Part shown: piece after piece, positions 14,375 through 43,569 of the stretch
Layout of the letters: every line of letters begins with the position of its first letter
Numbering within the stretch: the stretch's first letter is position 1
NCBI GenBank assembly: GCA_964523705.1
Contig: CAZFYA010000001.1
Coordinates: 185,420-249,419, forward strand
Reading direction: 5' to 3'
Origin: an uncultured Gammaproteobacteria bacterium
GTDB lineage: Bacteria; Patescibacteriota; Microgenomatia; Levybacterales; UBA12049
DNA: 64,000 bases
Made by a program: the position numbers and the translations under genes
Notes under the pieces: model-generated
Database searches by the model: none
What the model was told of the DNA's origin: nothing
Seen by the model: the letters and a program-made list of their open reading frames with translations, nothing else

Positions 14375-14710
14375 ATGAGGAAGAAAAAAACATATTATTG
14401 GTTTTTATTACCAAGTATCTTATCTTTAATAGGAATCGCCTATTTAATTATTTTTACTTCTCCTGAAAAAGGTTTTGATTTTCTAAGCTTTACAATTCCA
14501 AGCTTAATTAGTTTTTTTGCTTTAGTTTTTCTTTTTTTCTTTTCCTTAGTTTCATTTTTGTTTAAGAAAATAAAACATGGAATTTTTACTGGTCTTTTAA
14601 TAACTTCAATTTTACTTTTATTTTTATACAAACTGGCTCATGTTTATTTTATTCTTCTTCTGATTGCCCTTTTTATACTCTTGGAGTTTTTGTTCAAAAA
14701 AGATGTTTAA
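14375..14710 (+). CDS. Small three-TM membrane protein, unknown function
   Basis: Three long hydrophobic segments. It starts 3 nt after the preceding membrane gene. Confidence 0.45.
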   Translation: MRKKKTYYWFLLPSILSLIGIAYLIIFTSPEKGFDFLSFTIPSLISFFALVFLFFFSLVSFLFKKIKHGIFTGLLITSILLLFLYKLAHVYFILLLIALFILLEFLFKKDV

Positions 14711-15836: not shown

Positions 15837-16118
15837 ATGAGACCTAATCCTATTTATTATGTTTACATCGTTGAATGTTCGGACGGAAGCTATTACATTG
15901 GTCAAACTAATAATTTAAAATTAAGACTACAAGAACATAATACAGACACCCCAAAAGATGGAGCAAAATATACAAGAGCTAAAAGACCGGTAACCCTTCA
16001 ACATTTTGAAACCTTTCAAACCAGAAGTGAAGCAATGAAAAGAGAATATGAGCTAAAACAATTAAAACATATTGAGAAAAAAGTTATTTGCGCTAATGGA
16101 AATAAAATTGGTTATTAA
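15837..16118 (+). CDS. GIY-YIG nuclease superfamily protein (YhbQ/UPF0213-like)
   Basis: YYVYIVECSDGSYYIGQTNNLKLRLQEHN gives the GIY-YIG core. Confidence 0.8.
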   Translation: MRPNPIYYVYIVECSDGSYYIGQTNNLKLRLQEHNTDTPKDGAKYTRAKRPVTLQHFETFQTRSEAMKREYELKQLKHIEKKVICANGNKIGY

Positions 16119-17320: not shown

Positions 17321-17506
17321 ATGTCAAATTTAGAAATTCAAAGAAACGCAAGGAACTTAATGGCTGACTCTAAAGAGTTTACAGCTTATTCCAGAAACAA
17401 GAAAGACAAGACTGATTTAACTCCGAATTGTTCAGTTCCGAATTGCGCATTGCCTTGTAAACCACCACCATCACCACCTGGTTGTAAGGCATGTAGAAAA
17501 TCATAG
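17321..17506 (+). CDS. TOMM/LAP-type RiPP precursor peptide (61 aa): hydrophilic leader plus Cys/Ser/Thr/Pro-rich core TPNCSVPNCALPCKPPPSPPGCKACRKS
   Basis: Small ORF with a perfect promoter and RBS, immediately upstream of the YcaO, SagB-dehydrogenase and M16-peptidase genes. It has 5 Cys and 5 Ser/Thr in its last 28 residues. Confidence 0.7.
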   Translation: MSNLEIQRNARNLMADSKEFTAYSRNKKDKTDLTPNCSVPNCALPCKPPPSPPGCKACRKS

Positions 17507-17520
17507 GTTACAAATCTAGA

Positions 17521-17543
17521 TAAGTAATAATTTTTATTACTTA
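17521..17543 (+). terminator. AT-rich perfect hairpin (TAAGTAATAA-TTT-TTATTACTTA) between precursor and modification genes; likely partial terminator/attenuator
   Basis: A 10-bp perfect inverted repeat, 14 nt after the precursor stop and 16 nt before the YcaO start. Confidence 0.4.
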
Positions 17544-17558
17544 GTATTCAATTGATGT

Positions 17559-18884
17559 TTGTTACATATGAAAAACTCTAAATTAGAGAAAGATATGTTG
17601 GCAAATTCTCTAGAAAGAGCTGCTAAATTTGCAAACAATAGTAATTTTATTACAAATATTTATAAGGTTCCCCTATATAATGATGACCCTAAAATATTCG
17701 CCTATTCAGCAACGTACAAACTTAAGTATAAAAATAACGAAGATGTAGCGAATGGATTTTCTTTCTTTAAAAATATTGCCTTGATGAGAGTACTGGGAGA
17801 AGGAGTAGAACGCTATTGCCTAGATCATTTTTCTCCTAAAAACACCTGTTTTTGTAAGGAAAGTGAAGTTAAAACCTATCATTTAAACCCACTTAAAATA
17901 ATTGCTTTTTCATCTAAGCAACTTAAGAACAATAATTTTAATAAGTTTAGAATAGATGATACGTCTCTGTTTGGATGGACTAAAGGAGTATCTCTTACTA
18001 AGAAAAAAGATGTCCTTGTACCTTCTCAACTAGTTATCTTTAACTATGTAACGTTAAAAAATGAACCAAGAATCTTATCCTCAATCTCTACAGGCGCTGC
18101 ATCTGGATTATCGCTAGAAGATGCTTTATATAGGGCAATCTGTGAAATCGTTGAAAGGGATGCATTTATGATAAGCTACCTCAATAAACTTAATTCTCCA
18201 CGATTAGATCTGTTATCAATTGGTGATCCTGCAATCAATAAAATTCTTAATACCTATGCTCGGTATAAACTAGAACTGGCTGTAATTGACATTACAACTA
18301 ATTTACAAATTCCAGCATTTGTCGCCATCACTTTGGACAGAACCGGTATAGGACCTGCTACATCCGTAGGACTTAAAGCAGGATTTAATATTAAAGATGC
18401 TATAATTGGAGCAATTGAAGAATCTCTAATGACTAGGTCTTGGCAACGAGACAACCATACATATAATAATCTTAGGGAACGAAAGCAAAAAAAAGAGATC
18501 CTTCAAGAATTAACAGAAAAAGCTTGTTTCTGGTTTTCTATAGATAAAATCAAGCACCTTGATTTTTGGCTAAATAATAAAAATGTTAAAAAAATTAATA
18601 TCAAAAAATATAAATACTCGAATAGCAATCTAAAAAAAGCGGTTCAAAAATTAACAGCAAAAAAAATGGAAATTATATATGTAGATATAACAACTGATAA
18701 GATTAAACAGTATGGCTTTACTACGGTAAAGGTAATTATCCCTGGATTACATCCTCTACATTTGGACGAAAAACATCCTTATTGGGGAGGAGAACGATTA
18801 TATAATGCTCCTATTGAGATGGGCTTGTTAAAAACAACTAAACATGAAAATGAATTAAATAAAATTCCTCACCCATTCTTATGA
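17559..18884 (+). CDS. YcaO-domain cyclodehydratase (SagD-like, TOMM D-protein)
   Basis: YcaO signature SISTGAASGLSLEDALYRAICEIVERDAF (GxAxG...ExxERD), 441 aa. It has a TTG start with an ATG 3 codons later, and a 4-nt ATGA overlap with the next gene. Confidence 0.8.
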   Translation: MLHMKNSKLEKDMLANSLERAAKFANNSNFITNIYKVPLYNDDPKIFAYSATYKLKYKNNEDVANGFSFFKNIALMRVLGEGVERYCLDHFSPKNTCFCKESEVKTYHLNPLKIIAFSSKQLKNNNFNKFRIDDTSLFGWTKGVSLTKKKDVLVPSQLVIFNYVTLKNEPRILSSISTGAASGLSLEDALYRAICEIVERDAFMISYLNKLNSPRLDLLSIGDPAINKILNTYARYKLELAVIDITTNLQIPAFVAITLDRTGIGPATSVGLKAGFNIKDAIIGAIEESLMTRSWQRDNHTYNNLRERKQKKEILQELTEKACFWFSIDKIKHLDFWLNNKNVKKINIKKYKYSNSNLKKAVQKLTAKKMEIIYVDITTDKIKQYGFTTVKVIIPGLHPLHLDEKHPYWGGERLYNAPIEMGLLKTTKHENELNKIPHPFL

Positions 18885-19666
18885 AAACAAATAACACTAA
18901 GATATTATTGGAAAAAATTGAAGGCAAACAATCTGTTTCAGACAAATTTCATTCTTTTACAAATAACAAAATTTTAGGTGTTAAAATAAACAGAAAATAC
19001 GCTCCCCCTCAATCATGGATAAAAATTCATTTTAAGACTTATCCCCGTCTAAACAGAATTAAACTTAATAGTAAGATAGAAAAAAATAAAACAGGTAAAT
19101 TATCCAACATAATTGAGCAAAGAAAATCTTTTAGAAAGTTTTCAGGTCTATCTATCACAAAAAACGATCTTTCTTATCTATTACTTTATTCATGCGGATT
19201 GATAAGGTTGGGAAAATCATTCGATGATTCCAGAAGGCCTTATCCATCTGCAGGGGCGAGATACCCTTTGGAAATATACCCACTTATACTAAAGTGTGAA
19301 GAAATAGAAAATGGTCTATATCATTACAATGTTAAGGAACATTCATTAGAATTATTGTTAAAAGAAAACTTAAGCAATTGGCTTCTCAAAACTACTGGCG
19401 GAGAAAATTGGATGACAAAAGCTTCTGTGATATTTATAATTACAGGCGTTCTAGATAGAACAAGAGTAAAATATGGAGACCGAGGATATAGATATGTTTT
19501 AATTGAAGCAGGTCATGTGGGACAAAATATTTGTCTTTTATCAACAGACTTGGGATTAGGAAGTTGCGCCATAGGAGGATATATAGATCAGGAGGTAAAT
19601 AAACTATTAGATATTAATTTACAAAAAGAAAATACGTTATATATGTTTGCTGTTGGTAAATTATGA
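18881..19666 (+). CDS. SagB-type FMN-dependent dehydrogenase (McbC-like, nitroreductase fold) for azoline-to-azole oxidation
   Basis: RRPYPSAGARYPLEIYP, GLYHYN, and KYGDRGYRYVLIEAGHVGQNICLLSTDLGLGSCAIGGY. There are ATGA overlaps on both sides. Confidence 0.8.
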   Translation: MKTNNTKILLEKIEGKQSVSDKFHSFTNNKILGVKINRKYAPPQSWIKIHFKTYPRLNRIKLNSKIEKNKTGKLSNIIEQRKSFRKFSGLSITKNDLSYLLLYSCGLIRLGKSFDDSRRPYPSAGARYPLEIYPLILKCEEIENGLYHYNVKEHSLELLLKENLSNWLLKTTGGENWMTKASVIFIITGVLDRTRVKYGDRGYRYVLIEAGHVGQNICLLSTDLGLGSCAIGGYIDQEVNKLLDINLQKENTLYMFAVGKL

Positions 19667-20955
19667 AAATTTCTTATAATAAATACAATCTTCCAAACGG
19701 ACTTACTGTGATTCTTCAGCCCATGCCCTTTGTAAATTCAGTAGTTGTAAATGTTGTAGTGGGAGCAGGTCCACGTTTTGAAACTAAAAAATCTGCTGGT
19801 CTTGCTCATTTTCTCGAACACATGCTTTTTGAAGGGACAAAAAGGTTTCCTACAGCAAAGGACGTTGCCAGAAGAATAGAAAAAATCGGAGGCACTAGCA
19901 GGGCTTTTACTGAAAAGGAATACGTCTCCTATTATACAAAAATCCCAAAACAACATCTTAATGTAGCATTTGATTATTTGTCTGATATTCTATTCAATTC
20001 CTTATTAGAAAGCGACGTAATTGAAAAGGAAAAAAGAATTGTAATAGAGGAGTTGAGAAGATCTGAAGATAATCCAGAAGTAAATATATGGAATTTATGG
20101 CTAGAGTGGATATGGGGCAAGAATCAATCACTTGGTCGTTCTACTATGGGCGACGAAGTAACAATAAAAAAAATAACTAAACAAAAACTGCAAGATTATC
20201 TAGATATGCTTTATCATCCCTCAAATATGGCAATCGTAGTTACAGGAAACTTTTCCATAAAAGAAGCAAAAGAATATATTTTGAAATACTTTGGGAAAAC
20301 TCGATCAAAAAGTGTTCCACTCTTTAAAAGAGTAAGGTTTAATCACAAAAAAATACATACTAAAATTGTCCAATCAGATACAAAACAGGCACAACTGATT
20401 CTTGGATTTGTAACAGATATTTCTTATCATCACAAAGATCGTTTCTCAATACGGGCTATTGCAGATGTTTTAAGTGGAGGAATAAGCTCGCGACTTTCCA
20501 ATAAGCTTATTTATGAATTGGGAATCGCATATTCAGCGTGGGCATACACGTGGATTTTTTCTGATAACGGATTATTCTGTATTTCTGGTGGGTTTTCTCC
20601 TCGAAACTTAAAAAATGCAATAAAAGTGATCTTGGAAGAATTAAATAAATTAAAAAAGCGAAAGGTTGCAGAAACAGAATTAAAAGAAGCAAAAGAAAAA
20701 AACATAGCAGAACTCTTTTTTTCTTTGGAAACACCAGATGCAATGGCAAGTTTATATTCATCACAACAAATTACAGAAAAACAAATCATGACTCCAGAAA
20801 AAATTTCAACAAAAATAGATAAGGTAACAACAGAAGATATGTTGAGAGTGGCTAGAAAATATTTTAATCTTGAAAATTTAAGATTAATAATACATGGTCC
20901 TTTAAAAGAAAAGGAGATAATTTCTATAGAAAAGTTATTAAAACAAATGTCTTAA
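19663..20955 (+). CDS. M16-family (pitrilysin/insulinase-like) zinc metallopeptidase, candidate leader peptidase
   Basis: Inverted zinc motif HFLEHMLFEGT plus the downstream Glu in SRAFTEKEYVSYY, 430 aa. Confidence 0.8.
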   Translation: MKISYNKYNLPNGLTVILQPMPFVNSVVVNVVVGAGPRFETKKSAGLAHFLEHMLFEGTKRFPTAKDVARRIEKIGGTSRAFTEKEYVSYYTKIPKQHLNVAFDYLSDILFNSLLESDVIEKEKRIVIEELRRSEDNPEVNIWNLWLEWIWGKNQSLGRSTMGDEVTIKKITKQKLQDYLDMLYHPSNMAIVVTGNFSIKEAKEYILKYFGKTRSKSVPLFKRVRFNHKKIHTKIVQSDTKQAQLILGFVTDISYHHKDRFSIRAIADVLSGGISSRLSNKLIYELGIAYSAWAYTWIFSDNGLFCISGGFSPRNLKNAIKVILEELNKLKKRKVAETELKEAKEKNIAELFFSLETPDAMASLYSSQQITEKQIMTPEKISTKIDKVTTEDMLRVARKYFNLENLRLIIHGPLKEKEIISIEKLLKQMS

Positions 20956-21104
20956 GTCGTGGTTTTTTTGAAAATAATCTTAAATTACAATGGCGTCTTA
21001 CTAGACATTTGACCATTATGCAAAGACTAAACTGGGCTCCCCCGCGAGGACTCGAGCTAATTATTGTCCTATTTATCCAGCTTTGGTAAAATTGCCTTAG
21101 CTTT

Positions 21105-22517
21105 ATGAATAAATTCTATATTACTACTGCGATTGATTATGTAAACGACACTATTCACCTTGGACATGCATTCCAAAAAATAGCGGCGGATGTTCTAACG
21201 CGTTTTAAAAGAGAAAACTTGGGAAAAGAAAATGTTTTTTTTCTAACCGGAACTGATGAATATGGACAAAAAGCAGAGAAAGCTGCCAAAGAAGCAAAAA
21301 TATTCCCTTTAGAATTTGTTGAAAAAATATCTAAATCTGACCAAAAAGAACAGGATAGTTTAAATATTTCATATAACCGTTTTATTAGAACAACCGATAA
21401 AGACCATGCAAAAACAGTTTTTGAAATCTGGCAAAGAGTTAATAAATCAGGAGATATTTATAAAAGTAATTATTCCGGTCTTTATTGTGAAGGATGTGAA
21501 GCATACTATACTGAAAACGATTTAGAAAACGGCAAGTGTCCCCTTCATCCAAATTTAGAAATTAAAAAAATAACCGAAGAAAATTATTTTTTCAAATGGA
21601 GCAAATATAAAGATTTTTTAATTGATCACATTAAAAACAATCCTGATTTTATTTTTCCAAAACACCGTAGTCATGAAATGCTTGAATTTGCAAAAAACAT
21701 AAAAGATATTCCAATCTCAAGAACTAATTTTTCCTGGGGAATTCCTGTGCCAAATGACAAAAACCAAGTGATTTATGTCTGGTTTGATGCATTAATTAAT
21801 TACTTAACCGGAATTGGTTTTTCAAACGATAAAAAACTTTTTGAAAAATTCTGGCCAGCTGATGTACATATTTTAGGAAAAGATAATCTTCGTTGGCATG
21901 CTCTTTTATGGCCGGCAATATTAAAATCCGCGGGAATTCCCTTACCAAAAACAATTTTAGTTAATGGATTTTTAACAATAAACGGAGAAAAAATAAGTAA
22001 GTCCCAAGGAAATATTATTAGACCAACTGACTGGGTTGAAAAATATGGAGCAGATGCCGTTAGATATTATTTACTTCGCTATGCCGGTTTAACCGAAGAT
22101 TCTGATATTTCCGAAGAGAAACTAAAACAAGCATATAATTCAGATTTAGCAAATGGACTTGGAAACTTAATTTCAAGAGTTGCAAAACTTTGCGAGAGGG
22201 TATCGTTAGGAAAAATTAATTCTCCAAATAATTTTTCAGAAAAGTTTTCTAATCTTGTTAATAAATATTATTTCGATGAAGCGTTAATCAACGTATGGAC
22301 AAGAATTTATCATTTAAATCAACAAATAAATAAAGTTGAACCATGGAAAATTGAAGATAAAGATAAACTTGAGAAATTTTTAAAAAATATTGCTCAAGAA
22401 ATTCTAAAAATAGCATTTGACTTAAAACCTTTTCTGCCGAAAACTGCGGAAAAAATTCTTAATCAATTTTCAAAACCGGAAATTAAAAGTGAGCCACCAT
22501 TATTCCCAAGAATTTAA
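21105..22517 (+). CDS. metG: Methionyl-tRNA synthetase (short form)
   Basis: YITTAIDYVNDTIHLGHAFQKIAADVLTRFKR (HIGH-class motif HLGH), a zinc knuckle CEGCE...CPLH, and KMSKS-like KISKSQGN. Confidence 0.85.
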   Translation: MNKFYITTAIDYVNDTIHLGHAFQKIAADVLTRFKRENLGKENVFFLTGTDEYGQKAEKAAKEAKIFPLEFVEKISKSDQKEQDSLNISYNRFIRTTDKDHAKTVFEIWQRVNKSGDIYKSNYSGLYCEGCEAYYTENDLENGKCPLHPNLEIKKITEENYFFKWSKYKDFLIDHIKNNPDFIFPKHRSHEMLEFAKNIKDIPISRTNFSWGIPVPNDKNQVIYVWFDALINYLTGIGFSNDKKLFEKFWPADVHILGKDNLRWHALLWPAILKSAGIPLPKTILVNGFLTINGEKISKSQGNIIRPTDWVEKYGADAVRYYLLRYAGLTEDSDISEEKLKQAYNSDLANGLGNLISRVAKLCERVSLGKINSPNNFSEKFSNLVNKYYFDEALINVWTRIYHLNQQINKVEPWKIEDKDKLEKFLKNIAQEILKIAFDLKPFLPKTAEKILNQFSKPEIKSEPPLFPRI

Positions 22518-22520
22518 TTT

Positions 22521-23315
22521 ATGGTAGATGTACATTGTCACTTAAATTTTAAAGCTTTTGAAGAAGACTTAGATGAAGTTATAAAACGGGCTTTAAAAAA
22601 TGGTGTTGAAAAAATATTAAATGTTGGATCAAGTATTGAAACAAGTATTGCTGCTGTTAAACTTTCTGAAAAATATAATAATCTTTTTGCAACTGTTGGA
22701 ATTCATCCTCATCATGCGGATAAACTTGAAAAAAACTGGGATGAAAAATTAGAAAATTTAGCAAAGAGTAAAAAAGTAGTTGCAATTGGTGAAACGGGAA
22801 TGGATTTTTATCCTTATGAATCAAATGGAATAACAGATGAAAAATTACAAAAAGAACTTTTTATAAAACAAATTGAAATTGCCAACAAATTAAAACTTCC
22901 ACTTCAAATACACAACAGACAAGCAGGAGAAAAAATATTAGATATTTTAAAAGCAAATAAAAATTTATTAAAAAACCCTCCTGGTCTTTTTCATTGTTTT
23001 TCAGGCGATATTGATTTTTTAAAAAAAGTTTTAGAACTTAATTTTTATGTAGGCTTTGACGGAAACATTTCATATAAAGGAATTGCTAAAGGAGAAAATA
23101 CATTGCTTTCTGATTTAGTAAACTATGCTCCGCTTGACAGAATTATCACCGAAACTGATGCTCCTTATCTAACTCCTGTTCCTCACAGAGGTAGCAGAAA
23201 TGAACCCTCTTATGTTATAATTGTGGCTGAATTTATTGCTAAAATTAAGAAAGAAAAATTAGAAACAGTTATTAAAAAAACTACTAAGAATGCTCATACT
23301 GTTTTTAACTTCTAA
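22521..23315 (+). CDS. tatD: TatD-family metal-dependent DNase/hydrolase
   Basis: MVDVHCHLNF, GIHPHHA, GETGMDFY, FHCFSGD, ETDAPYL. Confidence 0.8.
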   Translation: MVDVHCHLNFKAFEEDLDEVIKRALKNGVEKILNVGSSIETSIAAVKLSEKYNNLFATVGIHPHHADKLEKNWDEKLENLAKSKKVVAIGETGMDFYPYESNGITDEKLQKELFIKQIEIANKLKLPLQIHNRQAGEKILDILKANKNLLKNPPGLFHCFSGDIDFLKKVLELNFYVGFDGNISYKGIAKGENTLLSDLVNYAPLDRIITETDAPYLTPVPHRGSRNEPSYVIIVAEFIAKIKKEKLETVIKKTTKNAHTVFNF

Positions 23316-23346
23316 TTCTTGATTTTATTTTTTTATTAAGAGCATT

Positions 23347-24843
23347 ATGCAAAAATTTTTAGATAAAATTTTTACACGCTATCCTGTTAAGACCAAAAGG
23401 GCTTTAGAAATCTTACCGGGTTTTTTCTCGTGGTCTTTAATTACATTTCCCGTCTGGGGTTCTTTTATCGTTCCTTATCAACTTGCCTACTTTATTTTAT
23501 TTTTTGATATTTACTGGTTCTATAAATCTTTTTCCCTAGCAATAACTTCATATATTTCCTCAAGAAAAATTAATAAAACTGAAAAAATAGATTGGAATAA
23601 AAAAGCTAAAGAGCTTAAAAACTATGAAAAAATGACTCATATCGCCATAATCCCAAACTATACAGAAAGAGTGGATAAACTAAGAATAACCGTTGATTCT
23701 ATCGCTAAGCAAACTTTTCCAACTAAAAGAATTTTTGTAGTTTTAGCAATGGAAAAAAGAGAAAAAGATGCTAAGAAAAAAGCAAATGAATTAATAAATG
23801 AGTTTAAAAATGTCTTTGGAGGAATCTTTGCTGCCTATCATCCGGATATTGAAGGAGAAGTAAAAGGAAAATCATCTAATGAAGCGTTTGCCGGAAAATT
23901 AGCTTATAAAAAATTAGTGGGTGAAGGAATTATTGATCCTAATTTTGCAACAATTTCATCTGTTGATGCTGATTCAATTTTTGATAAACAATATTTTGCT
24001 TATCTTACCAACAGTTTTTTATCTGATGAGAAAAAATATAATAAGTTTTGGCAATCAGCAAATGTTTATTATTCAAACATTTGGAAAGTTCCTGCACCAA
24101 CCAGAGTTGTTTCTTTTTTTGGGAGCCTTTGGAATACTGCGGTTTTAATTCATAAAAATAGACTGATTACAAATGCAACATATTCTACCTCTTTAAAATT
24201 AATGAAAGAAATTGGATTTTGGGATACAGATGTAATTCCTGAAGACTACAGAATTTTCTTTAAAGCATTTTATAAAAAAAGCGGTAATGTCTGGGCAGAT
24301 CCGATCTTTTTAAGAACATCCATGGATGCTGCACAATCTCCAGGTTATATAAACAGTTTAAAAAATAAATATGAGCAGGAAAAACGCTGGGCATGGGGAG
24401 CAAGTGATGATTATTTGTTTATCAAGTGGTGGTTAACAGTTCCAAATGTTCCATTTATTAGAAAAACTTTAATGCTTTTTCCGGTTGTAAGAGATCATTT
24501 TCTTTGGCCGACAAATTGGTTTATAATAACAATAGCAGCAAACATTATGCCTTTAATTAATCCGGTTTTCTCAAGAACAACACTTGGCTACAACTTACCT
24601 AAATTAGCAGGATTTATTTTAACTTCATGCATGCTTTCTCTTTTAGCAATGCTTATTGTTGACATTAAAAATAGACCAAAAAATCTTCCGGGTCCAAGCA
24701 AAAAAACTCAGGCTCTTTTCCCAATTGAGTTTGTTTTGCTTCCAATTGTAGGCTTTTTCTTCTCTTCCTTACCTGCTCTTGTTTCACATACTCAACTTTT
24801 ACTCGGAAAAAGGTTAGAATATAAAGTAACGGAAAAAATATGA
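23347..24843 (+). CDS. Membrane-embedded family-2 glycosyltransferase of the processive (cellulose/chitin-synthase-like) type
   Basis: N- and C-terminal TM helices. IIPNYTE, a DAD (DxD) motif in SSVDADSIF, and QEKRW (QxxRW). Confidence 0.6.
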   Translation: MQKFLDKIFTRYPVKTKRALEILPGFFSWSLITFPVWGSFIVPYQLAYFILFFDIYWFYKSFSLAITSYISSRKINKTEKIDWNKKAKELKNYEKMTHIAIIPNYTERVDKLRITVDSIAKQTFPTKRIFVVLAMEKREKDAKKKANELINEFKNVFGGIFAAYHPDIEGEVKGKSSNEAFAGKLAYKKLVGEGIIDPNFATISSVDADSIFDKQYFAYLTNSFLSDEKKYNKFWQSANVYYSNIWKVPAPTRVVSFFGSLWNTAVLIHKNRLITNATYSTSLKLMKEIGFWDTDVIPEDYRIFFKAFYKKSGNVWADPIFLRTSMDAAQSPGYINSLKNKYEQEKRWAWGASDDYLFIKWWLTVPNVPFIRKTLMLFPVVRDHFLWPTNWFIITIAANIMPLINPVFSRTTLGYNLPKLAGFILTSCMLSLLAMLIVDIKNRPKNLPGPSKKTQALFPIEFVLLPIVGFFFSSLPALVSHTQLLLGKRLEYKVTEKI

Positions 24844-26312
24844 AGACCTTAAAGGTTCTTGAAAAAAGCAAGAGTTTTTGGCTTCTCTTAAGTAGTCTTG
24901 TCTTATTCTTCTTTTTAAGACTTCCTTCTCTTTTTGAACCCTATTGGTATGGAGATGAGGGTATATATCAAACACTTGGAATGGGAATAAATAAAGGAAG
25001 AATTTTATATCAGGGAATTTTTGATAACAAACCTCCTCTTTTATATGTTTTTTATAGTCTTTTTAACGGTGATCAATTTTATTTAAGACTTTTCTCCTTA
25101 ATTTTTGGTCTTTTAGCAATTGCTACTTTTTTCTATCTTGCAAAAAAGCTTTTTAAAAAAAACACGGCTATTTATGTCTCTACTTTTATTTTTGCAATTA
25201 TTTTTGGCCTGCCAATAATTGAGGGAAACATAGCTAATGCTGAAAACTTTATGCTCTTTTTTATTCTTTCGGCGTTTTACTTAGCAATTGATCATTTTAA
25301 AACAAAATGGGAAAACAAAATGTTTTTTTGGGCCGGAATAGTTTTGGGGATTGCTTTTCTTTTTAAAATTGTAGCAATTTTTGATTTTGCAGCATTAGTG
25401 GCATTTCTTTTTGTTGTTAAAACTCCAAAAGATTTTTCAGGAAATCTTTATAAAAAACTAACAAGTGGGCTTAAAGATTTATATTGGCTTATTGTTGGTT
25501 TTATAATTCCTATTTTAGCAACTGCCACTTTTTTCTTTACTCAAGGAGCGTTTCAGGAATTTATAACAGCAACTTTTTACTCAAACGTTGGCTACGTTGG
25601 CTATCATAATAAATTAATAATTCCGCAAGGATTTTTAATTCTAAAACTAGTTTTACTTTTTCTTTTTATTGCTTTTATTTATCTAAGAAGACATAAATTA
25701 ACTACGCAAACTATTTTAATCTGGGTTTGGCTTTCCTTTTCGGTTTTTAACGCTCTTTTTTCGCAGCGCCCCTATACTCACTACCTTCTTGTTTTACTTC
25801 CAAGCTTTTGTCTTTTAATTGGTCTTTTCTTTGAAGAGAAAAAGCTTAGAATAATTAATCTTTTATTTATTGTACTTTTATTAATTATGTCATTTAAGTG
25901 TTTTTGGATTTATACAAAAGTTATTCCTTACTACGAAAACTTTATTAATTTTGCAACAAATAACAAAAGCGTTGCTGATTACCAAAGATTTTTTGATAAA
26001 AAGACACCAATTGATTATCAAATTGCTCAATATATAAATAAAAATACGACTGAAGAGGATAATATTTTTATCTGGGGAAATAATTCTCAACTTTATAAAC
26101 TAACAGGCAAACTTCCCCCCGGTAGATATACTGTTGCTTATCATATGAATAATTATAAAAATGGGCTTAAGGAAACTGCTGAAGCAATTGAAAAAACAAA
26201 ACCTAAGTATATTATTATGATGTCTTATATGAATAACTATCCGTTTCCGCTTTTACACTACAAGCCCACGGTAGTAATTGATAAGATTTCAATTTATGAA
26301 AGAGTTCTTTAA
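24840..26312 (+). CDS. GT-C-fold glycosyltransferase, PMT/ArnT (GT39/GT83)-like polytopic membrane protein
   Basis: First extracytoplasmic loop EPYWYGDEGIYQTLGMGINKG (DE motif). At least 11 TM helices and a hydrophilic C-terminal domain. Confidence 0.5.
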   Translation: MKTLKVLEKSKSFWLLLSSLVLFFFLRLPSLFEPYWYGDEGIYQTLGMGINKGRILYQGIFDNKPPLLYVFYSLFNGDQFYLRLFSLIFGLLAIATFFYLAKKLFKKNTAIYVSTFIFAIIFGLPIIEGNIANAENFMLFFILSAFYLAIDHFKTKWENKMFFWAGIVLGIAFLFKIVAIFDFAALVAFLFVVKTPKDFSGNLYKKLTSGLKDLYWLIVGFIIPILATATFFFTQGAFQEFITATFYSNVGYVGYHNKLIIPQGFLILKLVLLFLFIAFIYLRRHKLTTQTILIWVWLSFSVFNALFSQRPYTHYLLVLLPSFCLLIGLFFEEKKLRIINLLFIVLLLIMSFKCFWIYTKVIPYYENFINFATNNKSVADYQRFFDKKTPIDYQIAQYINKNTTEEDNIFIWGNNSQLYKLTGKLPPGRYTVAYHMNNYKNGLKETAEAIEKTKPKYIIMMSYMNNYPFPLLHYKPTVVIDKISIYERVL

Positions 26313-26649
26313 GGATTTAAAAAATGACCGTATTATTTCAAGAGGGTATCTACTTTCTTTTCTGTTTTTAATAATAACTGTTGTTTATATATTTTTATAT
26401 TATTCAAGCTTACCCCCGTTTATTCCTCTTTTTAATCAACTACCATGGGGAGAAATGCGCTTAGTTGAAACTATTGGAATTTTTTTACCAATTAGTATTG
26501 CTATTGCTATTACGATTTTTAACTTTTTCCTTTCCGCATCAATTTACAAAAGAAATCCCTTGGTACCAAGAATTTTAACTTTAACTAATTTATTAATTTC
26601 ACTTTTAACACTTCTTTTTATAATAAGAACTATTCAAATTGTTTTATAA
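26278..26649 (+). CDS. Small membrane protein (3-4 TM), unknown; possible accessory subunit of neighbouring glycosyltransferases
   Basis: Hydrophobic helices throughout. It abuts the next gene. Confidence 0.4.
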   Translation: MIRFQFMKEFFKDLKNDRIISRGYLLSFLFLIITVVYIFLYYSSLPPFIPLFNQLPWGEMRLVETIGIFLPISIAIAITIFNFFLSASIYKRNPLVPRILTLTNLLISLLTLLFIIRTIQIVL

Positions 26650-27717
26650 ATGTTAAATATTTTAAATTCCATATTTTTTCCTTTTTTAACTGCTTTTTTA
26701 GCAACTATTGTTTTTGTTCCCCTATCTTTAATTCTTATTAAAAAATACAAATTAATCGATGATCCTAAAAAAAGAAAACACCCGGCAATACTGCATAAAA
26801 AACCTATTCCAAGAGGCGGAGGAATTCCTTTATTTTTAGGTTGTCTTTTAGCCGGAATTTTTTTTCTTCCTTTAACTAAAATAACAATTGTTTTGTTTCT
26901 AGCTTCTTTTGTCTCTCTTGTTATAGGAGTAATGGATGATAAATTTGACATCTCTCCTTACTTTAGATTTTTAATAAACATCGTTGTTGCAGTTGCTGTT
27001 GTTTATGCAGGAGTAAACATTGCCTTTATTACTAATCCCTTAGGAGGAATTCTGCACTTAGATAAAATCGCAATTCCTTTTTTAGATACTTCTCTTTCCT
27101 ATATTATTGCTGTTATCTGGATTGTTTGGATTATGAACATGCTTAATTGGAGTAAAGGCGTTGATGGACAAATGCCGGGTATTGTTGCAATTTCTGCCAT
27201 TATAATCGGCCTTTTAAGTCTTCGCTTTAATGCAACTGATCCATCAACAATGATTAGCACCACTCTTTCTTTTATTGTTGCCGGGGCGTCGCTAGGATTT
27301 TTAATTTTTAATTTTTATCCTGCAAAAATATTTCCAGGATATGGAGCAACATCAATTTATCTTTTGCTTGCTGTTGCTTCAATTCTGTCTTCTGCAAAAT
27401 TAGCAACTGCAATTTTGGTTATGGGAATTCCAATGATTGATGGTTTATTTACCATTTTTAGAAGAATAATAAGTGGAAAATCTCCTTTTAGACATGATAA
27501 CAAACACCTTCATCACCTACTTTTGAAAAGGCACTGGGGACAGCGAAGAATTGCGTTGTTTTATTGGTTAATTTCTGCTATGCTTGGAGCAATTTCTTTG
27601 CTTCTGTCTAGCAAGGGTAAAATATTTGCCATAATAATGCTAGCAATTATTGTAGGAGGAGGAATTTTATTTCTTCAGCTTACAATAAAGCATAATGAAG
27701 ATGAAAATGGCGTTTAA
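26650..27717 (+). CDS. Polyprenyl-phosphate N-acetylhexosamine-1-phosphate transferase (WecA/MraY family, GT4-like PNPT)
   Basis: VIGVMDDKFDISP (DDxxD), NMLNWSKGVDGQMPG, and 10-11 TM helices. Confidence 0.7.
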   Translation: MLNILNSIFFPFLTAFLATIVFVPLSLILIKKYKLIDDPKKRKHPAILHKKPIPRGGGIPLFLGCLLAGIFFLPLTKITIVLFLASFVSLVIGVMDDKFDISPYFRFLINIVVAVAVVYAGVNIAFITNPLGGILHLDKIAIPFLDTSLSYIIAVIWIVWIMNMLNWSKGVDGQMPGIVAISAIIIGLLSLRFNATDPSTMISTTLSFIVAGASLGFLIFNFYPAKIFPGYGATSIYLLLAVASILSSAKLATAILVMGIPMIDGLFTIFRRIISGKSPFRHDNKHLHHLLLKRHWGQRRIALFYWLISAMLGAISLLLSSKGKIFAIIMLAIIVGGGILFLQLTIKHNEDENGV

Positions 27718-28642
27718 TATTTTAAGGCTCTTAAGACCAAGACAATGGATTAAAAACTTGGCAATTTTTACAGCAATTATTTTTGCCGGTGTACTTTTTG
27801 AAAAATCCATATTTGATAAAGTTTTTTTAGGCTTTATTGCCTTTTGTGGTTTATCTTCAGCAACCTATGTAATTAATGATTTATTTGATATTAAAAAAGA
27901 TAGACTTCACCCTTTTAAAAAATTTCGACCTTTAGCAAAAGGCGATGTTCCAATTCCGCTTGCAGTTATTATTGCAGTAATTTTAATTGTTGGCTCATTT
28001 TTATTAAGTCTTTCCATTACCCCAACATTTACCATAGTTGCTGTTGTTTATCTTGCACTTCAATTTCTTTATTCGCTTAAGTTTAAAATGGTTGCGGCCT
28101 TAGATATTTTAATAATTGCTCTAGGTTATATTTTAAGAGTATACGCAGGAGAGTTTGCCAGCGGATACCATATTTCCGTATGGATGTTATTAACTACTGT
28201 TTCTTTTTCTCTGTTTTTAGCTGTTGGTAAAAGAAGATCTGAGCTTACTCTTCTTTCCAATAGTAAAGTCTCAAATATTACAACTGTTAGACAATCGCTT
28301 TCTCGTTATTCAGAAAAGCTTTTAGATATTTATGCTTCTATGTTTGCTACATCAACTTTTATTACTTATTCTCTTTTTACTTTCTTAGAAAATCCAAAAG
28401 GAATAAAATTAGCACTTGGCGTTTTTATGCCGGATTTCCTACCTGTTTTTTTCCAGCGAAAATGGTTAATGATAACCATAATTCCTGTTATTTATGGAAT
28501 AATGCGTTATCTTCAAGATATTTATGAAAAAAATGAAGGAGAAAGTCCAGATAGAGTTTTGCTTTCCGATAAACCACTTTTAACAACAGTTATTATTTGG
28601 TTATTGCTGGTTATTTTTATAATCTACCTTATCGGCCCTTAG
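27695..28642 (+). CDS. UbiA-superfamily prenyl-phosphate phosphoribosyltransferase homolog (decaprenyl-phosphate 5-phosphoribosyltransferase-like)
   Basis: N-terminal RPRQWIKNLAIFTA, Asp-rich NDLFDIKKDRLHP, a second motif at YILRVYAGE, and 8-9 TM helices. A TAG stop was verified. Confidence 0.55.
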   Translation: MKMKMAFNILRLLRPRQWIKNLAIFTAIIFAGVLFEKSIFDKVFLGFIAFCGLSSATYVINDLFDIKKDRLHPFKKFRPLAKGDVPIPLAVIIAVILIVGSFLLSLSITPTFTIVAVVYLALQFLYSLKFKMVAALDILIIALGYILRVYAGEFASGYHISVWMLLTTVSFSLFLAVGKRRSELTLLSNSKVSNITTVRQSLSRYSEKLLDIYASMFATSTFITYSLFTFLENPKGIKLALGVFMPDFLPVFFQRKWLMITIIPVIYGIMRYLQDIYEKNEGESPDRVLLSDKPLLTTVIIWLLLVIFIIYLIGP

Positions 28643-28695
28643 TTTTTTATTCCGAGGGAGTGGAGGAATTTCAAATTTATTTTCTTTAAAAAAGA

Positions 28696-28944
28696 CTACT
28701 TATATACAGCTTGCCGATGGGCAATCTTAAGAACCTCTACTCGCTTTTCCTTCTCATTTATTTCATAAAGAATTCTATATGGCCATACACGAAGTGAATA
28801 GATGCCTTTTAACTCTCCTGTGAGTTTTTTTCCAGAATATGGAAACTTTTCTAAAGCATAGAGTTTTTTGCGAAGCTTTATTTGTTCATTTTTTGGAATT
28901 CTTTTATATTGCCTCTGAGAATCTTTAGAAAGAATAACATGCAT
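28696..28944 (-). CDS. Type II toxin, RelE/ParE superfamily
   Basis: 82 aa. ...LRVWPYRILYEINEKEKRVEVLKIAHRQ; begins 3 nt after the antitoxin gene. Confidence 0.7.
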   Translation of the reverse strand: MHVILSKDSQRQYKRIPKNEQIKLRKKLYALEKFPYSGKKLTGELKGIYSLRVWPYRILYEINEKEKRVEVLKIAHRQAVYK

Positions 28945-28947
28945 AGA

Positions 28948-29232
28948 TTATTTAAGATCAGCAAGAGGAACGAATTCTCCTTTTTTAATTTGTCTTTTGC
29001 TTTTTATGATATCTTTTTTAATTCCAGAAATAGTAAGCACCTCTGCGGTTTCTTCTAAAGACTCTAGTTCCTCCATGCTTACCATTACTACTTTTGGCTT
29101 CCCATTAACAGTGATAACCACCCTTTCGAGGTTTTCGTTTACTTGATCAACTAAATCTGGTAGAGTTGCTCTGACATCTGATATAGAAATAAGATTACTC
29201 ATAATGTAAATATTGTACAATAACTTGTACAT
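28948..29232 (-). CDS. Type II antitoxin, Phd/YefM family
   Basis: ISISDVRATLPDLVDQVNENLERVVITVNGKPKVVMVSMEELESLEETAEVL. Confidence 0.7.
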   Translation of the reverse strand: MYKLLYNIYIMSNLISISDVRATLPDLVDQVNENLERVVITVNGKPKVVMVSMEELESLEETAEVLTISGIKKDIIKSKRQIKKGEFVPLADLK

Positions 29233-29288
29233 CTTGTCAATATTTTGAGGCTAAGAATGGAGCTTCGAGGGGTAGACGATACTAGAAC

Positions 29289-30143
29289 CTATTCTTTAGT
29301 AGTGTATTGTCCGCTAACCCAACCTTCTTCACTATCATTTAGCTTAATTTTATACCAACCGTTTTTCTCATCTAAAAACTCATATTCTTCTCCAGGATTA
29401 ACCCTTGTAATTTCAGTTGATGCTGTAGTTGCATCTTCTCTTACCCTTAGAAAACCTGTTGGAGTTTGAAGTATAGTTACTTTAGCAGATGGACTTGCCT
29501 CCTCAACTGGTGTTTCAGTTGGGGAAATTTCAGGAAAGGCAGAGCTTGATGAAACATCAGGGAGTACTGAAAGAGTAACTGTTGCTTCAAGCCTATATCC
29601 TTTAATAGTTCTAATTCTTAAAACCTTATCAATATATCCCTCTTTTGAAACTTTTAATTCATGATCTGACTCTGTTAAGTCTTTTAATAAAAGCGGACTA
29701 ACTCCGGATGGGGATTGACTGTTATCCAAAGTTAAAATTGCTTTATCAGGAAAAGTAACTACGGAAAGCTCTGTTTCATCTTTTTCATTTAATTTAACTA
29801 AGCTAATAATGCTTCCTGAAGAAAATGCTCCTTCACCAAAAGTTCTATCAACTACTGTTAAAACAGATGAAGAAATAGTAATTTTTTCCTCAAAGCTCCT
29901 AAAGTTTCCCTGTACTGGAATTAGTTTTATTGTATAAGACCCTGCTTGAATTGTCTGATCCGCATCACACTTACAAAGAGGAGTTTCTCCGATTAATTTA
30001 CCGTCTAAATATACCTTGCTTTTTGGATTTGAAGTAACCTGAAGCGCACCTCTTCCCGCATCTTTACTGAAAAAATAGACTATTAAAATAAAAATGCCAA
30101 TTGTTGTTATTAATAGACCTAAAATAAAAAGAAATCTTTTCAT
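29289..30143 (-). CDS. Membrane-anchored PEGA-domain protein with C-terminal SH3b-like domain
   Basis: N-terminal TM helix. PEGA motif KVYLDGKLIGETP, and C-terminal GWYKIKLNDSEEGWVSGQY. Confidence 0.5.
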   Translation of the reverse strand: MKRFLFILGLLITTIGIFILIVYFFSKDAGRGALQVTSNPKSKVYLDGKLIGETPLCKCDADQTIQAGSYTIKLIPVQGNFRSFEEKITISSSVLTVVDRTFGEGAFSSGSIISLVKLNEKDETELSVVTFPDKAILTLDNSQSPSGVSPLLLKDLTESDHELKVSKEGYIDKVLRIRTIKGYRLEATVTLSVLPDVSSSSAFPEISPTETPVEEASPSAKVTILQTPTGFLRVREDATTASTEITRVNPGEEYEFLDEKNGWYKIKLNDSEEGWVSGQYTTKE

Positions 30144-37668: not shown

Positions 37669-38223
37669 ATGGCAAAGAAAACGCCTGATATAAATTTATT
37701 GAAAACAGGTAAGGTTAATGTTGTTGATGAAGTTATTAAATGGTCTATAACTATTGGCAGGGTACTTATTATAGCAGTTGAGGTTATTGCCCTATCTGCC
37801 TTTTTATATAGATTTACTCTAGACAGACAACTTATTGACTTACATTCAAAAATTAAACAAGAACAGGCAATTGTAGATTTTTTCAAAGAAAATGAGCAAA
37901 TGTATCTTAATCTTCAAGACCGCCTAGACGTTGCTTCAACTTACTCTAATCAATCCAGTGAAAAATTTAAAATATTTAACGACATTATTGGCTTTGCGCC
38001 CTCTGGAATTATCTTTAATAATTTCTCTCTTTACGAAGATAAAATCAGAATTAATGCCACTACGGATTCCATAAGCGCATTAAGCACTTTTGTTAATGAG
38101 CTTAAAAACTATTCTTTAATTAGTACTTTAAGCGTAGATAAAATAGAAAATAAACCATCAACTTCGCTTATTACTTTTGGAATTTCAGCAGGCATAAAAC
38201 AAGAAAAAACTAAAAAGAAATAA
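37669..38223 (+). CDS. Type IV pilus assembly protein PilN-like
   Basis: N-terminal cytoplasmic INLL motif (TPDINLLKTGK), a single TM helix, then a coiled-coil/periplasmic-type domain; 184 aa. Confidence 0.5.
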   Translation: MAKKTPDINLLKTGKVNVVDEVIKWSITIGRVLIIAVEVIALSAFLYRFTLDRQLIDLHSKIKQEQAIVDFFKENEQMYLNLQDRLDVASTYSNQSSEKFKIFNDIIGFAPSGIIFNNFSLYEDKIRINATTDSISALSTFVNELKNYSLISTLSVDKIENKPSTSLITFGISAGIKQEKTKKK

Positions 38224-38224
38224 T

Positions 38225-38848
38225 ATGCAATTACTTAAAAAAGATTGGCTTAAAAACTTACAGAAAAATAAATACTTACAGCTTTTACCTGATTTTAAAG
38301 AAGAAAAAAATAAAAGATTTATTACCCTTGCCTTAACGTTGTTTGCTCTTTGTTTCTTTGGGCTTTTTGCAATAGGTCCTACTTTATCAACTATTTCTAA
38401 GCTTCAAAAGGAATTAAAAGATAATCAAAAAATAGAAGATCAATTAAAACAAAAAATTAATAATCTTTCTATACTTCAGGATAAATATGCCAATCTTCAA
38501 GGAGATTTACCTGATGTTTACGCTGCTGTTCCTAAAACCCCTGAAACCGCAGTACTTATGGGTCAAATTGAAGCACTTGCAAGAAATAGCGGTGTAAATA
38601 TAACCAGCGCACAGACTCTTCAAGTTGAGGCGGTATCTGAAAGCAAAACTACTAAGAAAAATTCAAGCTTTAATTTTAGTATAGCTATTGAAGGAGATTA
38701 TGCTAATATTGCTAAATTTATAAACTCTTTAACTAATATGCAAAGAATTGTCTCGCTTGATGTAATAACAATTAATAATGTTACCAGTCGTCAAAAAGGA
38801 AACATTTTAAAATTAAGTATAAAAGGGACAGCGTATTTTAAAAGTTAA
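38225..38848 (+). CDS. Type IV pilus assembly protein PilO-like
   Basis: Short cytoplasmic N-terminus, one TM helix, coiled coil (LQKELKDNQKIEDQLKQKINNLS), 207 aa. It starts 2 nt after the pilN-like gene. Confidence 0.45.
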   Translation: MQLLKKDWLKNLQKNKYLQLLPDFKEEKNKRFITLALTLFALCFFGLFAIGPTLSTISKLQKELKDNQKIEDQLKQKINNLSILQDKYANLQGDLPDVYAAVPKTPETAVLMGQIEALARNSGVNITSAQTLQVEAVSESKTTKKNSSFNFSIAIEGDYANIAKFINSLTNMQRIVSLDVITINNVTSRQKGNILKLSIKGTAYFKS

Positions 38849-38849
38849 T

Positions 38850-43549: not shown

Positions 43550-43569
43550 AGTGTTTAAAAAGTAATATA

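Follow-up and report, generated by a model that had tools for sequence, protein, structure and literature searches.

In the three-component systems described for the addition of pentofuranose residues, a polyprenyl-phosphate 5-phosphoribosyltransferase (PPPRS) working with a phosphatase yields polyprenyl-phosphate-ribofuranose from phosphoribosyl pyrophosphate (PRPP), a flippase exports the product, and a glycosyltransferase of the GT-C type adds the sugar on the outside. Optional epimerases turn the ribose into arabinose or xylose (PMC11127046). In the Citrobacter youngae O1/O2 system, the three components are the PPPRS-PRP protein ORF15, the multidrug and toxic compound extrusion (MATE) flippase ORF14 and the GT-C/GT136 protein ORF12 (Kelly et al., PNAS 2024, PMC11127046). 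Here, an operon of five genes (23347-28642, + strand) is described from a 64,000-nt stretch of DNA of a bacterium of the Candidate Phyla Radiation (CPR), contig CAZFYA010000001.1 of assembly GCA_964523705.1, positions 185,420-249,419, forward strand, which is referred to as the window. Judged from the sequences of its products, this operon very probably converts PRPP into a ribose-type sugar donor bound to a lipid, as M. tuberculosis does for its cell wall. Furthermore, it seems rather probable that the operon is the CPR version of a PPPRS, flippase and GT-C pentofuranose system, joined to a WecA-like primer enzyme and a synthase-like family 2 glycosyltransferase (GT2), and that it builds a cell-envelope glycan on polyprenyl-phosphate carriers. 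It is read as a member of such systems because the PPPRS and the GT-C are recognisable and a 117-aa membrane protein is found in the position expected for the flippase.

Related logic is found in several other pathways. The mycobacterial arabinogalactan pathway comprises the UbiA-family protein Rv3806c, Rv3807c, DprE1/DprE2, Rv3789, the Emb/Aft GT-Cs, WecA and Lcp1, whereas the D-arabinofuranosylation of the pilin of Pseudomonas aeruginosa Pa5196 employs the GT-C TfpW, a PPPRS and homologues of DprE1/E2 (bioRxiv 10.1101/2020.04.19.049825; PMC11127046). In the GtrA/GtrB/GtrV, CsbB/GtcA/YfhO and ArnC/ArnEF/ArnT systems, as in the proposed CPR system, a monosaccharide is linked to a lipid inside the cell, a small membrane protein flips it, and a GT-C transfers it on the outside.

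The window has a G+C content of about 30% and carries housekeeping genes for DnaK/GrpE/HrcA, GroEL/ES, LepA, methionyl-tRNA synthetase (MetRS), MurJ, UvrD and triosephosphate isomerase. Its proteins are 60-100% identical to proteins from metagenome-assembled genomes labelled Candidatus Levybacteria/Levyibacteriota, Microgenomates or 'Patescibacteria group', and the window is therefore taken to be a chromosome segment of a Levybacteria-type CPR bacterium. For many of the closest genomes, the record title reads 'uncultured Gammaproteobacteria bacterium', yet these genomes are Levybacteria-like (~30-40% G+C, 63-90% identical proteins, shared synteny), and the titles look like placeholders or wrong taxonomy.

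The operon forms part of a + strand run in the order MetRS (21105), TatD (22521), GT2 (23347), GT-C (24840), the small membrane protein, the WecA-like enzyme (26650) and the UbiA-like protein (27695-28642). Intergenic gaps in this run are 0-31 nt, and three junctions overlap, namely GT2/GT-C (4 nt), GT-C/small protein and WecA-like/UbiA (23 nt). The boundaries of the open reading frames (ORFs) given for this region and elsewhere by an earlier reading of the bare sequence (the original prediction) were exact. For comparison, 84 related loci (designated L with a number) were brought together, namely the best 80 of 189 relatives obtained by scanning GTDB species genomes, with a PPPRS 60-90% identical to that of the window, and four loci from look-ups. 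High-scoring orthologues of each cluster protein occur in 73-84 of these loci, which argues that the genes are real and not chance ORFs. A promoter and terminator scan of 20900-29400 performed no better than on shuffled sequence and was not used as evidence.

The last gene of the operon (27695-28642, +) carries the central assignment. Its product, a UbiA homologue of 315 aa without an extra domain, contains the motifs RPRQWIKN (residues 14-21) and NDLFDIKKD (residues 61-69) and scores 230.4 bits against the NCBIfam model NF008978 'decaprenyl-phosphate phosphoribosyltransferase', for which the cut-off is 207. It matches Mycobacterium tuberculosis Rv3806c (PDB: 8j8j) at E=1.1e-41 over its full length (residues 7-306). 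The next PDB family, digeranylgeranylglyceryl phosphate synthase, follows at E=1.9e-5, and the MenA, UbiA, CyoE and ChlG models match at 1e-5 or weaker, generic UbiA-family models excepted. In Rv3806c, N73 and D77 are the Mg2+ ligands, R22, K87, R90, K143 and Y138 bind pyrophosphate, Q135 contacts the ribose, and K28, Y70 and Y157 contact the 5-phosphate, and this phosphoribose site is not conserved among other UbiA enzymes (PMC10994848). In an HMMER alignment, all 11 PRPP-, Mg- and lipid-binding residues are identical in the window protein, with Rv3806c R22, K28, Y70, N73, D77, K87, R90, Q135, Y138, K143 and Y157 corresponding to R14, K20, Y58, N61, D65, K75, R78, Q123, Y126, K131 and Y145, respectively, and they are invariant across 20 CPR homologues. 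By these sequence criteria, the UbiA homologue is a phosphoribosyltransferase, not a prenyltransferase. This bears out the original prediction of a decaprenyl-phosphate phosphoribose (DPPR) synthase, as the protein does not group with menaquinone or archaeal-lipid prenyltransferases, passes the family cut-off and keeps every PRPP-binding residue. The NCBI annotation (PGAP) already names CPR homologues DPPR synthases; the enzyme family, the pathway logic and the database product name are already known, and the finding is not a new principle.

The second component, the operon GT-C (24840-26312, +), is a glycosyltransferase of the PMT_2/PMT (ArnT/PMT-like) type, with matches to PMT_2 (1.2e-10) and PMT (2.8e-10) that both lie above the Pfam cut-offs. 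The pair D39-E40, found in the sequence EPYWYGDEGIY directly after the first transmembrane (TM) segment, is invariant, and the loops EPxWYGDEGxY, DNKPP and EGNIANxENF are conserved throughout. The DE and NKP motifs align weakly (E=0.042) with the DE and EKP motifs of Escherichia coli ArnT. PDB sequence searches with the single sequence and with a 30-sequence profile gave nothing useful. By homology, the catalytic DE loop faces outward, and the protein is predicted to be an extracytoplasmic transferase using a lipid-linked sugar. The gene overlaps that of the 117-aa membrane protein (26296-26649, +), whose ORF opens at 26278 and whose conserved start, M7, lies at 26296. Three TM segments are predicted for this protein, which contains an invariant LPPxxPxFNQxPWGxxR loop, matches no Pfam or NCBIfam family, and is a candidate flippase or accessory subunit. 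Its assignment as a flippase of the small multidrug resistance (SMR) type was dropped, as an hhalign comparison with E. coli ArnE revealed no similarity.

The first gene of the operon (23347-24843, +) encodes a membrane-embedded GT2 with the signature of processive synthases (D, DxD, ED, QxxRW), matching Pfam Glyco_trans_2_3 at E=7e-9. D207/D209 (DxD), E299-D300 and Q344..R347-W348 (QEKRW) are invariant in 30 homologues, and the GT-A domain is flanked by TM segments on its N-terminal side and, on its C-terminal side, by at least two and probably about four others. The hhalign comparison of the GT2 profile with E. coli PgaC (E=5.6e-5, probability 66%, 338 columns) runs almost end to end and pairs the DxD, TED and QxxRW motifs and the C-terminal TM region, and the motifs of BcsA align with the GT2 as well (E=0.05). 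No relative was found in PDB sequence searches with either the single sequence or a 30-sequence profile. An assignment as a GtrB/ArnC-type lipid-sugar synthase was dropped, since the GT2 profile shows no similarity to ArnC in hhalign. The protein is thus best seen as a putative, divergent membrane-embedded synthase-like enzyme of the PgaC/BcsA type, and not of the GtrB/Ppm1 type.

The fourth gene (26650-27717, +) encodes a WecA/TagO-like polyprenyl-phosphate N-acetylhexosamine (HexNAc)-1-phosphate transferase of the PNPT superfamily (PF00953, 1.2e-23). Its best model is TIGR02380 (WecA; 1.4e-31), with a score of 110 bits that is far below the cut-off of 326 and nevertheless beats the mraY models; its matches in the PDB are to MraY. 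The motifs DDxxD, NxxNxxxGxDGxxxG and HLHH are conserved. The enzyme would be expected to make polyprenyl-diphosphate-HexNAc, the usual primer of wall polymers which LytR-CpsA-Psr (LCP) enzymes attach to peptidoglycan. The enzyme families and conserved catalytic residues of the operon are in this way read from homology, and they stand beside the observed linkage of the genes.

With these assignments, the operon-like five-gene run of the original prediction, consisting of a QxxRW GT2, a PMT/ArnT-like GT-C with a DE motif, a small membrane protein, a WecA/MraY-family phosphotransferase and a UbiA-family enzyme, agrees with Pfam and NCBIfam, and the motifs named are present and invariant among homologues. 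The broader proposal of a lipid-linked pentose donor and several GT-Cs that serve a surface glycan or protein O-glycosylation stands with respect to the PPPRS and GT-C identities. The polyprenyl-phosphate-mannose route that was also invoked is unsupported, because the GT2 is not a polyprenyl-phosphate-hexose synthase of the GtrB/Ppm1 type.

In the proposed pathway, the PPPRS would move ribose-5-phosphate from PRPP onto polyprenyl phosphate at the cytoplasmic face of the membrane. The phosphoribosyl lipid would then be dephosphorylated by some phosphatase and flipped across the membrane, possibly by the 117-aa three-helix protein, after which the GT-C would add the pentofuranose, most likely ribofuranose, outside the membrane. 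The WecA-like enzyme would prime a polymer with polyprenyl-diphosphate-HexNAc, and the acceptor would most likely be a glycopolymer for which the GT2 makes or exports the backbone and/or the WecA-like enzyme provides the primer. Such a primed wall polymer is suggested as the acceptor because the WecA-like and PPPRS genes are coupled in translation and because an LCP ligase, MurJ and FemAB are encoded in the window. The dephosphorylation and flipping steps are inferred, and so are the sugar, its acceptor and the part played by the GT2.

Like the C. youngae system, the operon has an Rv3806c-like, PRPP-using PPPRS beside a GT-C, in keeping with extracytoplasmic pentofuranose addition where epimerases are optional and set the sugar (PMC11127046). 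Unlike the C. youngae system, it has no phosphoribose phosphatase domain or gene of the HAD type and no MATE flippase, in place of which the 117-aa protein with three TM segments and no known family is found. In addition, the GT-C is assigned to the PMT_2 type, and the operon adds the WecA-like primer enzyme and the synthase-like GT2. The hosts differ as well, the present one being a CPR bacterium with an envelope of the peptidoglycan/LCP type and, judging from the window, no lipopolysaccharide O antigen. With ArnT, the operon GT-C shares the Pfam family PMT_2; unlike in the GtrB/ArnC systems, however, the donor synthase has a UbiA fold and is PRPP-dependent, and neither the GT2 nor the 117-aa protein bears similarity to ArnC or ArnE, respectively.

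Several observations weigh against the proposed pentofuranose pathway. A synthase-type GT2 normally needs neither a WecA primer nor a GT-C partner. No PAP2 or HAD phosphatase was detected in the Pfam scan of the window, which covered ORFs of at least 100 aa (a few overlapping annotated genes excepted) and two toxin-antitoxin ORFs, and no phosphatase was present among ten recurrent or cluster-adjacent unmatched neighbour ORFs scanned from the 84 loci. Similarly, no GtrA, SMR or MATE flippase was found in the window or the 84 related loci, the sole MatE-related match being MurJ, and the 117-aa protein has three TM segments instead of four and resembles no known flippase. Lastly, the region from MetRS to PilO is syntenic within Levybacteria, and part of the gene linkage may reflect shared descent. 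The TatD-family metal-dependent hydrolase (22521-23315, +; PF01026, 2.9e-79), which is the first gene of the conserved block, was considered as the missing 5-phosphatase. This was rejected as speculation, since linkage is the sole evidence and metG-tatD adjacency is common in bacteria; TatD may be a housekeeping gene unrelated to the pathway.

The conservation of the cluster bears directly on whether its genes work together. The absences of cluster proteins among the 84 loci fall largely where a contig ends inside the block, with the operon GT-C present in 76 loci and the 117-aa protein in 78. In 69 loci, the TatD gene remains joined to that of the GT2, also where MetRS lies apart from it. Downstream, a PEGA + SH3_3 protein that is secreted or anchored and has a short S/T/P/E linker (29289-30143, -) is encoded convergently to the operon, and this gene is found in 83 of the 84 loci and in the more distant L098, L117 and L185, always in convergent orientation. 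The order TatD+ GT2+ GT-C+ small+ WecA+ UbiA+ PEGA/SH3- is unbroken in about 80 species-level genomes, one locus (L023) having no GT-C match within the otherwise unbroken order, and beyond TatD on one side and the PEGA gene on the other, gene content varies greatly from species to species. Three features of the borders of this block were noted in passing. In the window, a ParE toxin / Phd-YefM antitoxin pair (28696-29232, -) is inserted between the UbiA and PEGA/SH3 genes, which looks genome-specific because a single weak ParE match was found among the 84 related loci. A fused OMP decarboxylase-phosphoribosyltransferase (PyrF-PyrE-like, another PRPP user) adjoins the PEGA gene in L060 (4216-5811) and 17 similar loci, and a further GT-C (DUF2079) is located just upstream of TatD in L029 (2577-4058) and about ten similar loci.

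More distant relatives were collected in a metagenome scan using a pattern that excludes a Levybacteria-specific lysine, which yielded 120 diverse PPPRS loci. The commonest neighbour families in these unrelated PPPRS loci are HAD (the most frequent), FAD_binding_4, adh_short, Acyl_transf_3, GtrA and PMT_2. The arrangement WecA-PPPRS-PEGA/SH3 is kept in L098 and L117, where the PPPRS is 47-49% identical to that of the window, and in L126 (30% identity) a PMT_2 GT-C is encoded directly upstream of the PPPRS gene. In L122 (272-9971; metagenome contig Ga0213870_1001648), a type IV pilin with an N_methyl motif, a PPPRS (43% identity) and a PMT/TMEM260-like GT-C are encoded in a row. These recurrences extend the PPPRS-GT-C and PPPRS-WecA pairings beyond Levybacteria.

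An alternative explanation would be that the genes are neighbours without a common pathway, with the WecA-like enzyme priming a wall polymer, the GT2 making an exopolysaccharide, and at most the UbiA/GT-C pair cooperating. This would agree with the broad synteny of the MetRS-to-PilO block across Levybacteria, with the equally tight linkage of TatD, which is probably housekeeping, and with the GT2 and the 117-aa protein, which among the PPPRS loci compared were seen only in the Levybacteria-type cluster and not beside PPPRS homologues outside that lineage. However, the core from TatD to the PEGA gene never breaks although the genes outside it vary between species, start and stop codons within it overlap, and the pairings of PPPRS with GT-C and with WecA recur at 30-49% identity. 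Conserved neighbours without a common pathway are considered quite unlikely.

A second alternative concerns the sugar. If DprE1/DprE2 were encoded elsewhere in the genome, the product could be polyprenyl-phosphate-D-arabinofuranose, from which the GT-Cs would polymerise a mycobacterial-type arabinan on a WecA-primed, LCP-attached polymer. The set of parts does resemble the M. tuberculosis arabinogalactan locus (GT-C, ubiA, GT2, WecA, LCP), the five GT-C genes in 64 kb parallel the multiplicity of Emb/Aft, and epimerase genes need no linkage to the PPPRS gene. As in the mycobacterial pathway, a full-length PPPRS homologue, several GT-Cs, a WecA-type primer enzyme, an LCP ligase and a GT2 are present (PMC10994848). 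Unlike in that pathway, no equivalent of DprE1/DprE2, of the PAP2 phosphatase or of the GtrA/SMR-like Rv3789 was detected locally. The window GT-Cs belong to PMT_2, DUF2298 and PTPS_related and the mycobacterial ones to the Emb/Aft families, and none of the window GT-Cs matches the Pfam families Arabinose_trans or GT87. In addition, the membrane-embedded, synthase-like GT2 differs from its mycobacterial counterpart GlfT2.

The search for epimerases argues further against an arabinan. The Pfam scan of the window revealed neither a DprE1-type flavoenzyme (FAD_binding_4/ALO) nor a short-chain dehydrogenase/reductase (SDR), and thus no DprE1 or DprE2 protein. Phmmer searches of six-frame ORFs of the window and the 84 loci, using DprE1-like and DprE2-like proteins from a metagenomic locus as queries, gave no relative except one marginal SDR match at a contig edge; these loci, 54 of which are at least 15 kb long, reach about 10 kb around the PPPRS gene. 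By comparison, the same DprE1-like and DprE2-like queries match 22 and 21, respectively, of the 120 unrelated PPPRS loci, and among the 64 unrelated loci with at least 3 kb of flank, a DprE1-like gene occurs in 16 and an SDR in 15. Compared with typical PPPRS loci, the Levybacteria cluster thus stands out by having no linked epimerase, phosphatase or known flippase, and ribofuranose, the default sugar, is more likely than arabinofuranose as no epimerase is present in the window or the related loci. The DprE1/DprE2- and GtrA/GtrB-like partners for which the original prediction had suggested a search were accordingly absent from the window, the GT2 not being of the GtrB type. Arabinose, which had not been claimed outright, is supported by nothing, and a mycobacterial-type arabinan is judged very improbable.

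A third alternative concerns the acceptor. Instead of a glycopolymer, the PMT-type GT-C could attach the pentofuranose by O-linkage to a pilin or a surface protein, in the manner of TfpW from P. aeruginosa, with the WecA-like enzyme and the GT2 serving other pathways. In line with this, the operon GT-C matches the protein O-mannosyltransferase families PMT and PMT_2, and the PEGA/SH3 surface protein with its S/T/P linker, a possible acceptor or wall-binding partner, always adjoins the operon. The row of pilin, PPPRS and GT-C genes in L122 lies downstream of PilB within a pilus cluster and resembles a module for the TfpW-style pentofuranosylation of pilin, here in an uncultured lineage. As in Pa5196, a PPPRS-derived pentofuranose would be combined with a GT-C, the order in L122 is pilin-PPPRS-GT-C, and GT-Cs of the window are located behind pilN/pilO, where a Thr/Pro-rich anchored protein precedes them. 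Unlike in Pa5196, the window has neither a pilin gene nor epimerases, and the neighbours in the operon are WecA and the GT2, not pilus genes. A regex scan of the window and the Levybacteria loci likewise revealed no methylation motif of the kind found at pilin N-termini. The overlap of 23 nt between the WecA-like and PPPRS genes, and their association in L098 and L117, suggest a shared polymer pathway, and ArnT-type PMT_2 enzymes act on lipids and glycans too. A protein acceptor for the operon GT-C is a serious alternative which is on balance unlikely, although less so than the two preceding ones, and the glycopolymer remains the preferred acceptor.

Besides the operon GT-C, four further GT-C proteins are encoded in the window. 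The first (12321-14372, +), a PTPS_related GT-C-type membrane protein of 683 aa with about 10 TM segments and a C-terminal soluble domain, was assigned via its homologues, as it has no direct Pfam match. Its family has 2801 representative homologues, and PF10131 (PTPS_related) was found in 48 of the 55 sampled, with two fused to DUF2079. A 111-aa three-TM protein of no known family (14375-14710, +) is encoded 2 nt after this gene, the second case in the window of a GT-C accompanied by a small membrane protein, and weak homologues of it adjoin the cluster upstream of MetRS in several loci. The second GT-C (41879-43549, +; 556 aa) is a divergent DUF2298 paralogue without a Pfam match of its own, assigned from its predicted fold; its homologue P0229 matches PF10060 (DUF2298). 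The AlphaFold2 (AF2) model has a pLDDT of 86.7, and the top 20 Foldseek matches in the PDB are all GT-C proteins, including DPY19, STT3/PglB/AglB, AftA (TM-score 0.55) and ArnT. Its C-terminal domain resembles that of the neighbouring DUF2298 protein, and this domain was all that a profile comparison of the whole proteins detected. That neighbour (43570-45762, +; 730 aa) is a DUF2298 / chlor_Arch_YYY membrane protein of the GT-C type (PF10060, 3.4e-93; TIGR03662, 478 bits). The fourth protein (55816-57372, -; 518 aa) is a divergent PMT_2/ArnT-like GT-C according to its homologues, of which 11 out of 30 match PF13231 (PMT_2), and to its AF2 model (pLDDT 91.5), with ArnT (TM-score 0.55-0.58), PglB, STT3 and ALG9/12 as the best Foldseek matches.

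DUF2298 and PTPS_related are families which we take to be members of the Pfam GT-C clan, and for DUF2298 the GT-C assignment is supported here indirectly, via the predicted fold of the paralogue. All five large membrane proteins that the original prediction had described as GT-C-like thus fall into GT-C families or predicted folds and none into a transporter family, although 'giant' was an overstatement, 490-730 aa being an ordinary size for GT-C enzymes. The genes for an FAD oxidoreductase, an LCP protein, a GT4 enzyme and FemAB were also present as described. A literature search on DUF2298 returned unrelated mentions only.

Two of these GT-Cs belong to a tightly overlapping run on the + strand (37669-45762) that encodes PilN, PilO, a 105-aa protein, a surface protein, an FAD-dependent oxidoreductase and the two DUF2298-type GT-Cs. 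The run from PilN to the GT-Cs is also found in another Levybacteria genome (L085, 5824-13734). The surface protein (39164-40624, +) combines fn3 and Big_13 domains with a long stalk rich in Thr, Pro and Ser and a TM anchor at the C-terminus, and is a candidate substrate for O-glycosylation; a T/P-rich stalk is shared by its full-length homologues from L018 and L085. The oxidoreductase (40621-41901, +) is amine-oxidase/phytoene-desaturase-like and of the PRK07233 type (Amino_oxidase, 2.9e-32; NF005560, 414 bits). Its ORF overlaps the following GT-C gene (41879), and its closest structure is the uncharacterised archaeal PF1083. This amine-oxidase/CrtI-like protein was considered as a possible DprE1 analogue or UDP-galactopyranose-mutase-like enzyme, and it could modify the lipid carrier or the sugar. 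The position of the unit of oxidoreductase and two GT-Cs, behind pilN/pilO and the Thr/Pro-rich surface protein, points to surface-protein glycosylation, and there are hints that the unit glycosylates pilus-associated or surface proteins.

The pairing of the oxidoreductase with DUF2298 occurs in the window, in L085 and in the unrelated high-GC locus L159 (719-8664; metagenome contig Ga0208940_1006121, 66% G+C), in which the PPPRS gene is convergent with an oxidoreductase-DUF2298 operon. The products of this operon are a PRK07233-like FAD oxidoreductase, a DUF2298 protein that scores 398 bits against the one in the window, two GT2s whose N-terminal sequence and TM layout look GtrB-like, a further 10-TM protein and a 4-TM protein of 120 aa. 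As a single case, L159 is no more than suggestive of DUF2298 GT-Cs and a flavoprotein partner working in lipid-linked glycosylation near PPPRS genes in an unrelated lineage too.

The LCP phosphotransferase (45759-46847, -; PF03816, 2.5e-33) is encoded convergently with the DUF2298 gene, likewise in L085; enzymes of this type ligate polyprenyl-diphosphate-linked polymers to peptidoglycan. A glycosyltransferase of the GT4 type and GT-B fold (54062-55819, +; TreT_GT1, 8.7e-35; Glycos_transf_1, 2.4e-25) is also encoded. The four GT-C genes at a distance from the operon form separate units, which may draw on the same or other lipid-linked donors.

Other features of the window are independent of these genes. 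A candidate cluster for a ribosomally synthesised and post-translationally modified peptide (RiPP) of the thiazole/oxazole-modified type (17321-20955, +) consists of a 61-aa ORF with a Cys/Ser/Pro-rich C-terminus (TPNCSVPNCALPCKPPPSPPGCKACRKS), directly followed by genes for a YcaO cyclodehydratase, a dehydrogenase of the nitroreductase family that resembles SagB, and an M16 peptidase. None of the RiPP cluster genes was found among the 84 related Levybacteria loci, although these loci end within about 10 kb of the UbiA gene. Ahead of the YcaO cluster, where genes are sparse, a small ORF (15837-16118) looks GIY-YIG-like on inspection of its sequence. An Rfam match to RF03531 (n00280, 'C. difficile sRNA included into helicase gene') at 49159-49256 (+) scores above the gathering threshold and lies within the UvrD-type helicase gene, where it most likely represents conserved coding sequence and not a separate RNA gene. 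ARAGORN detected no tRNA gene across the 64 kb.

A literature search combining CPR/Patescibacteria with DPPR synthase, arabinosyltransferase, GT-C or decaprenyl retrieved nothing relevant, and to our knowledge almost nothing is known experimentally about the chemistry of the CPR/Patescibacteria cell envelope. With this finding, the paradigm of Rv3806c and the three-component pentofuranose systems reaches a very distant lineage with reduced genomes. Furthermore, it yields a candidate new accessory membrane protein of 117 aa and suggests a place in lipid-linked glycosylation for DUF2298 and PTPS_related, two uncharacterised GT-C families. More speculatively, and with low probability, Levybacteria and perhaps other Microgenomates might use a self-contained operon to decorate a wall polymer or surface proteins with PRPP-derived ribofuranose, with the previously undescribed three-helix protein replacing GtrA/MATE, no dedicated phosphatase or epimerase, and a backbone made by the GT2 and modified by the GT-C outside the cell, while the pair of oxidoreductase and DUF2298 protein could represent a new step modifying the lipid carrier or the sugar. 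If true, an organism with very little nucleotide-sugar metabolism would build a surface glycan from a central metabolite. As the episymbiotic lifestyle of CPR bacteria depends on surface contact, the operon gives a concrete, testable hypothesis on what these cells display.

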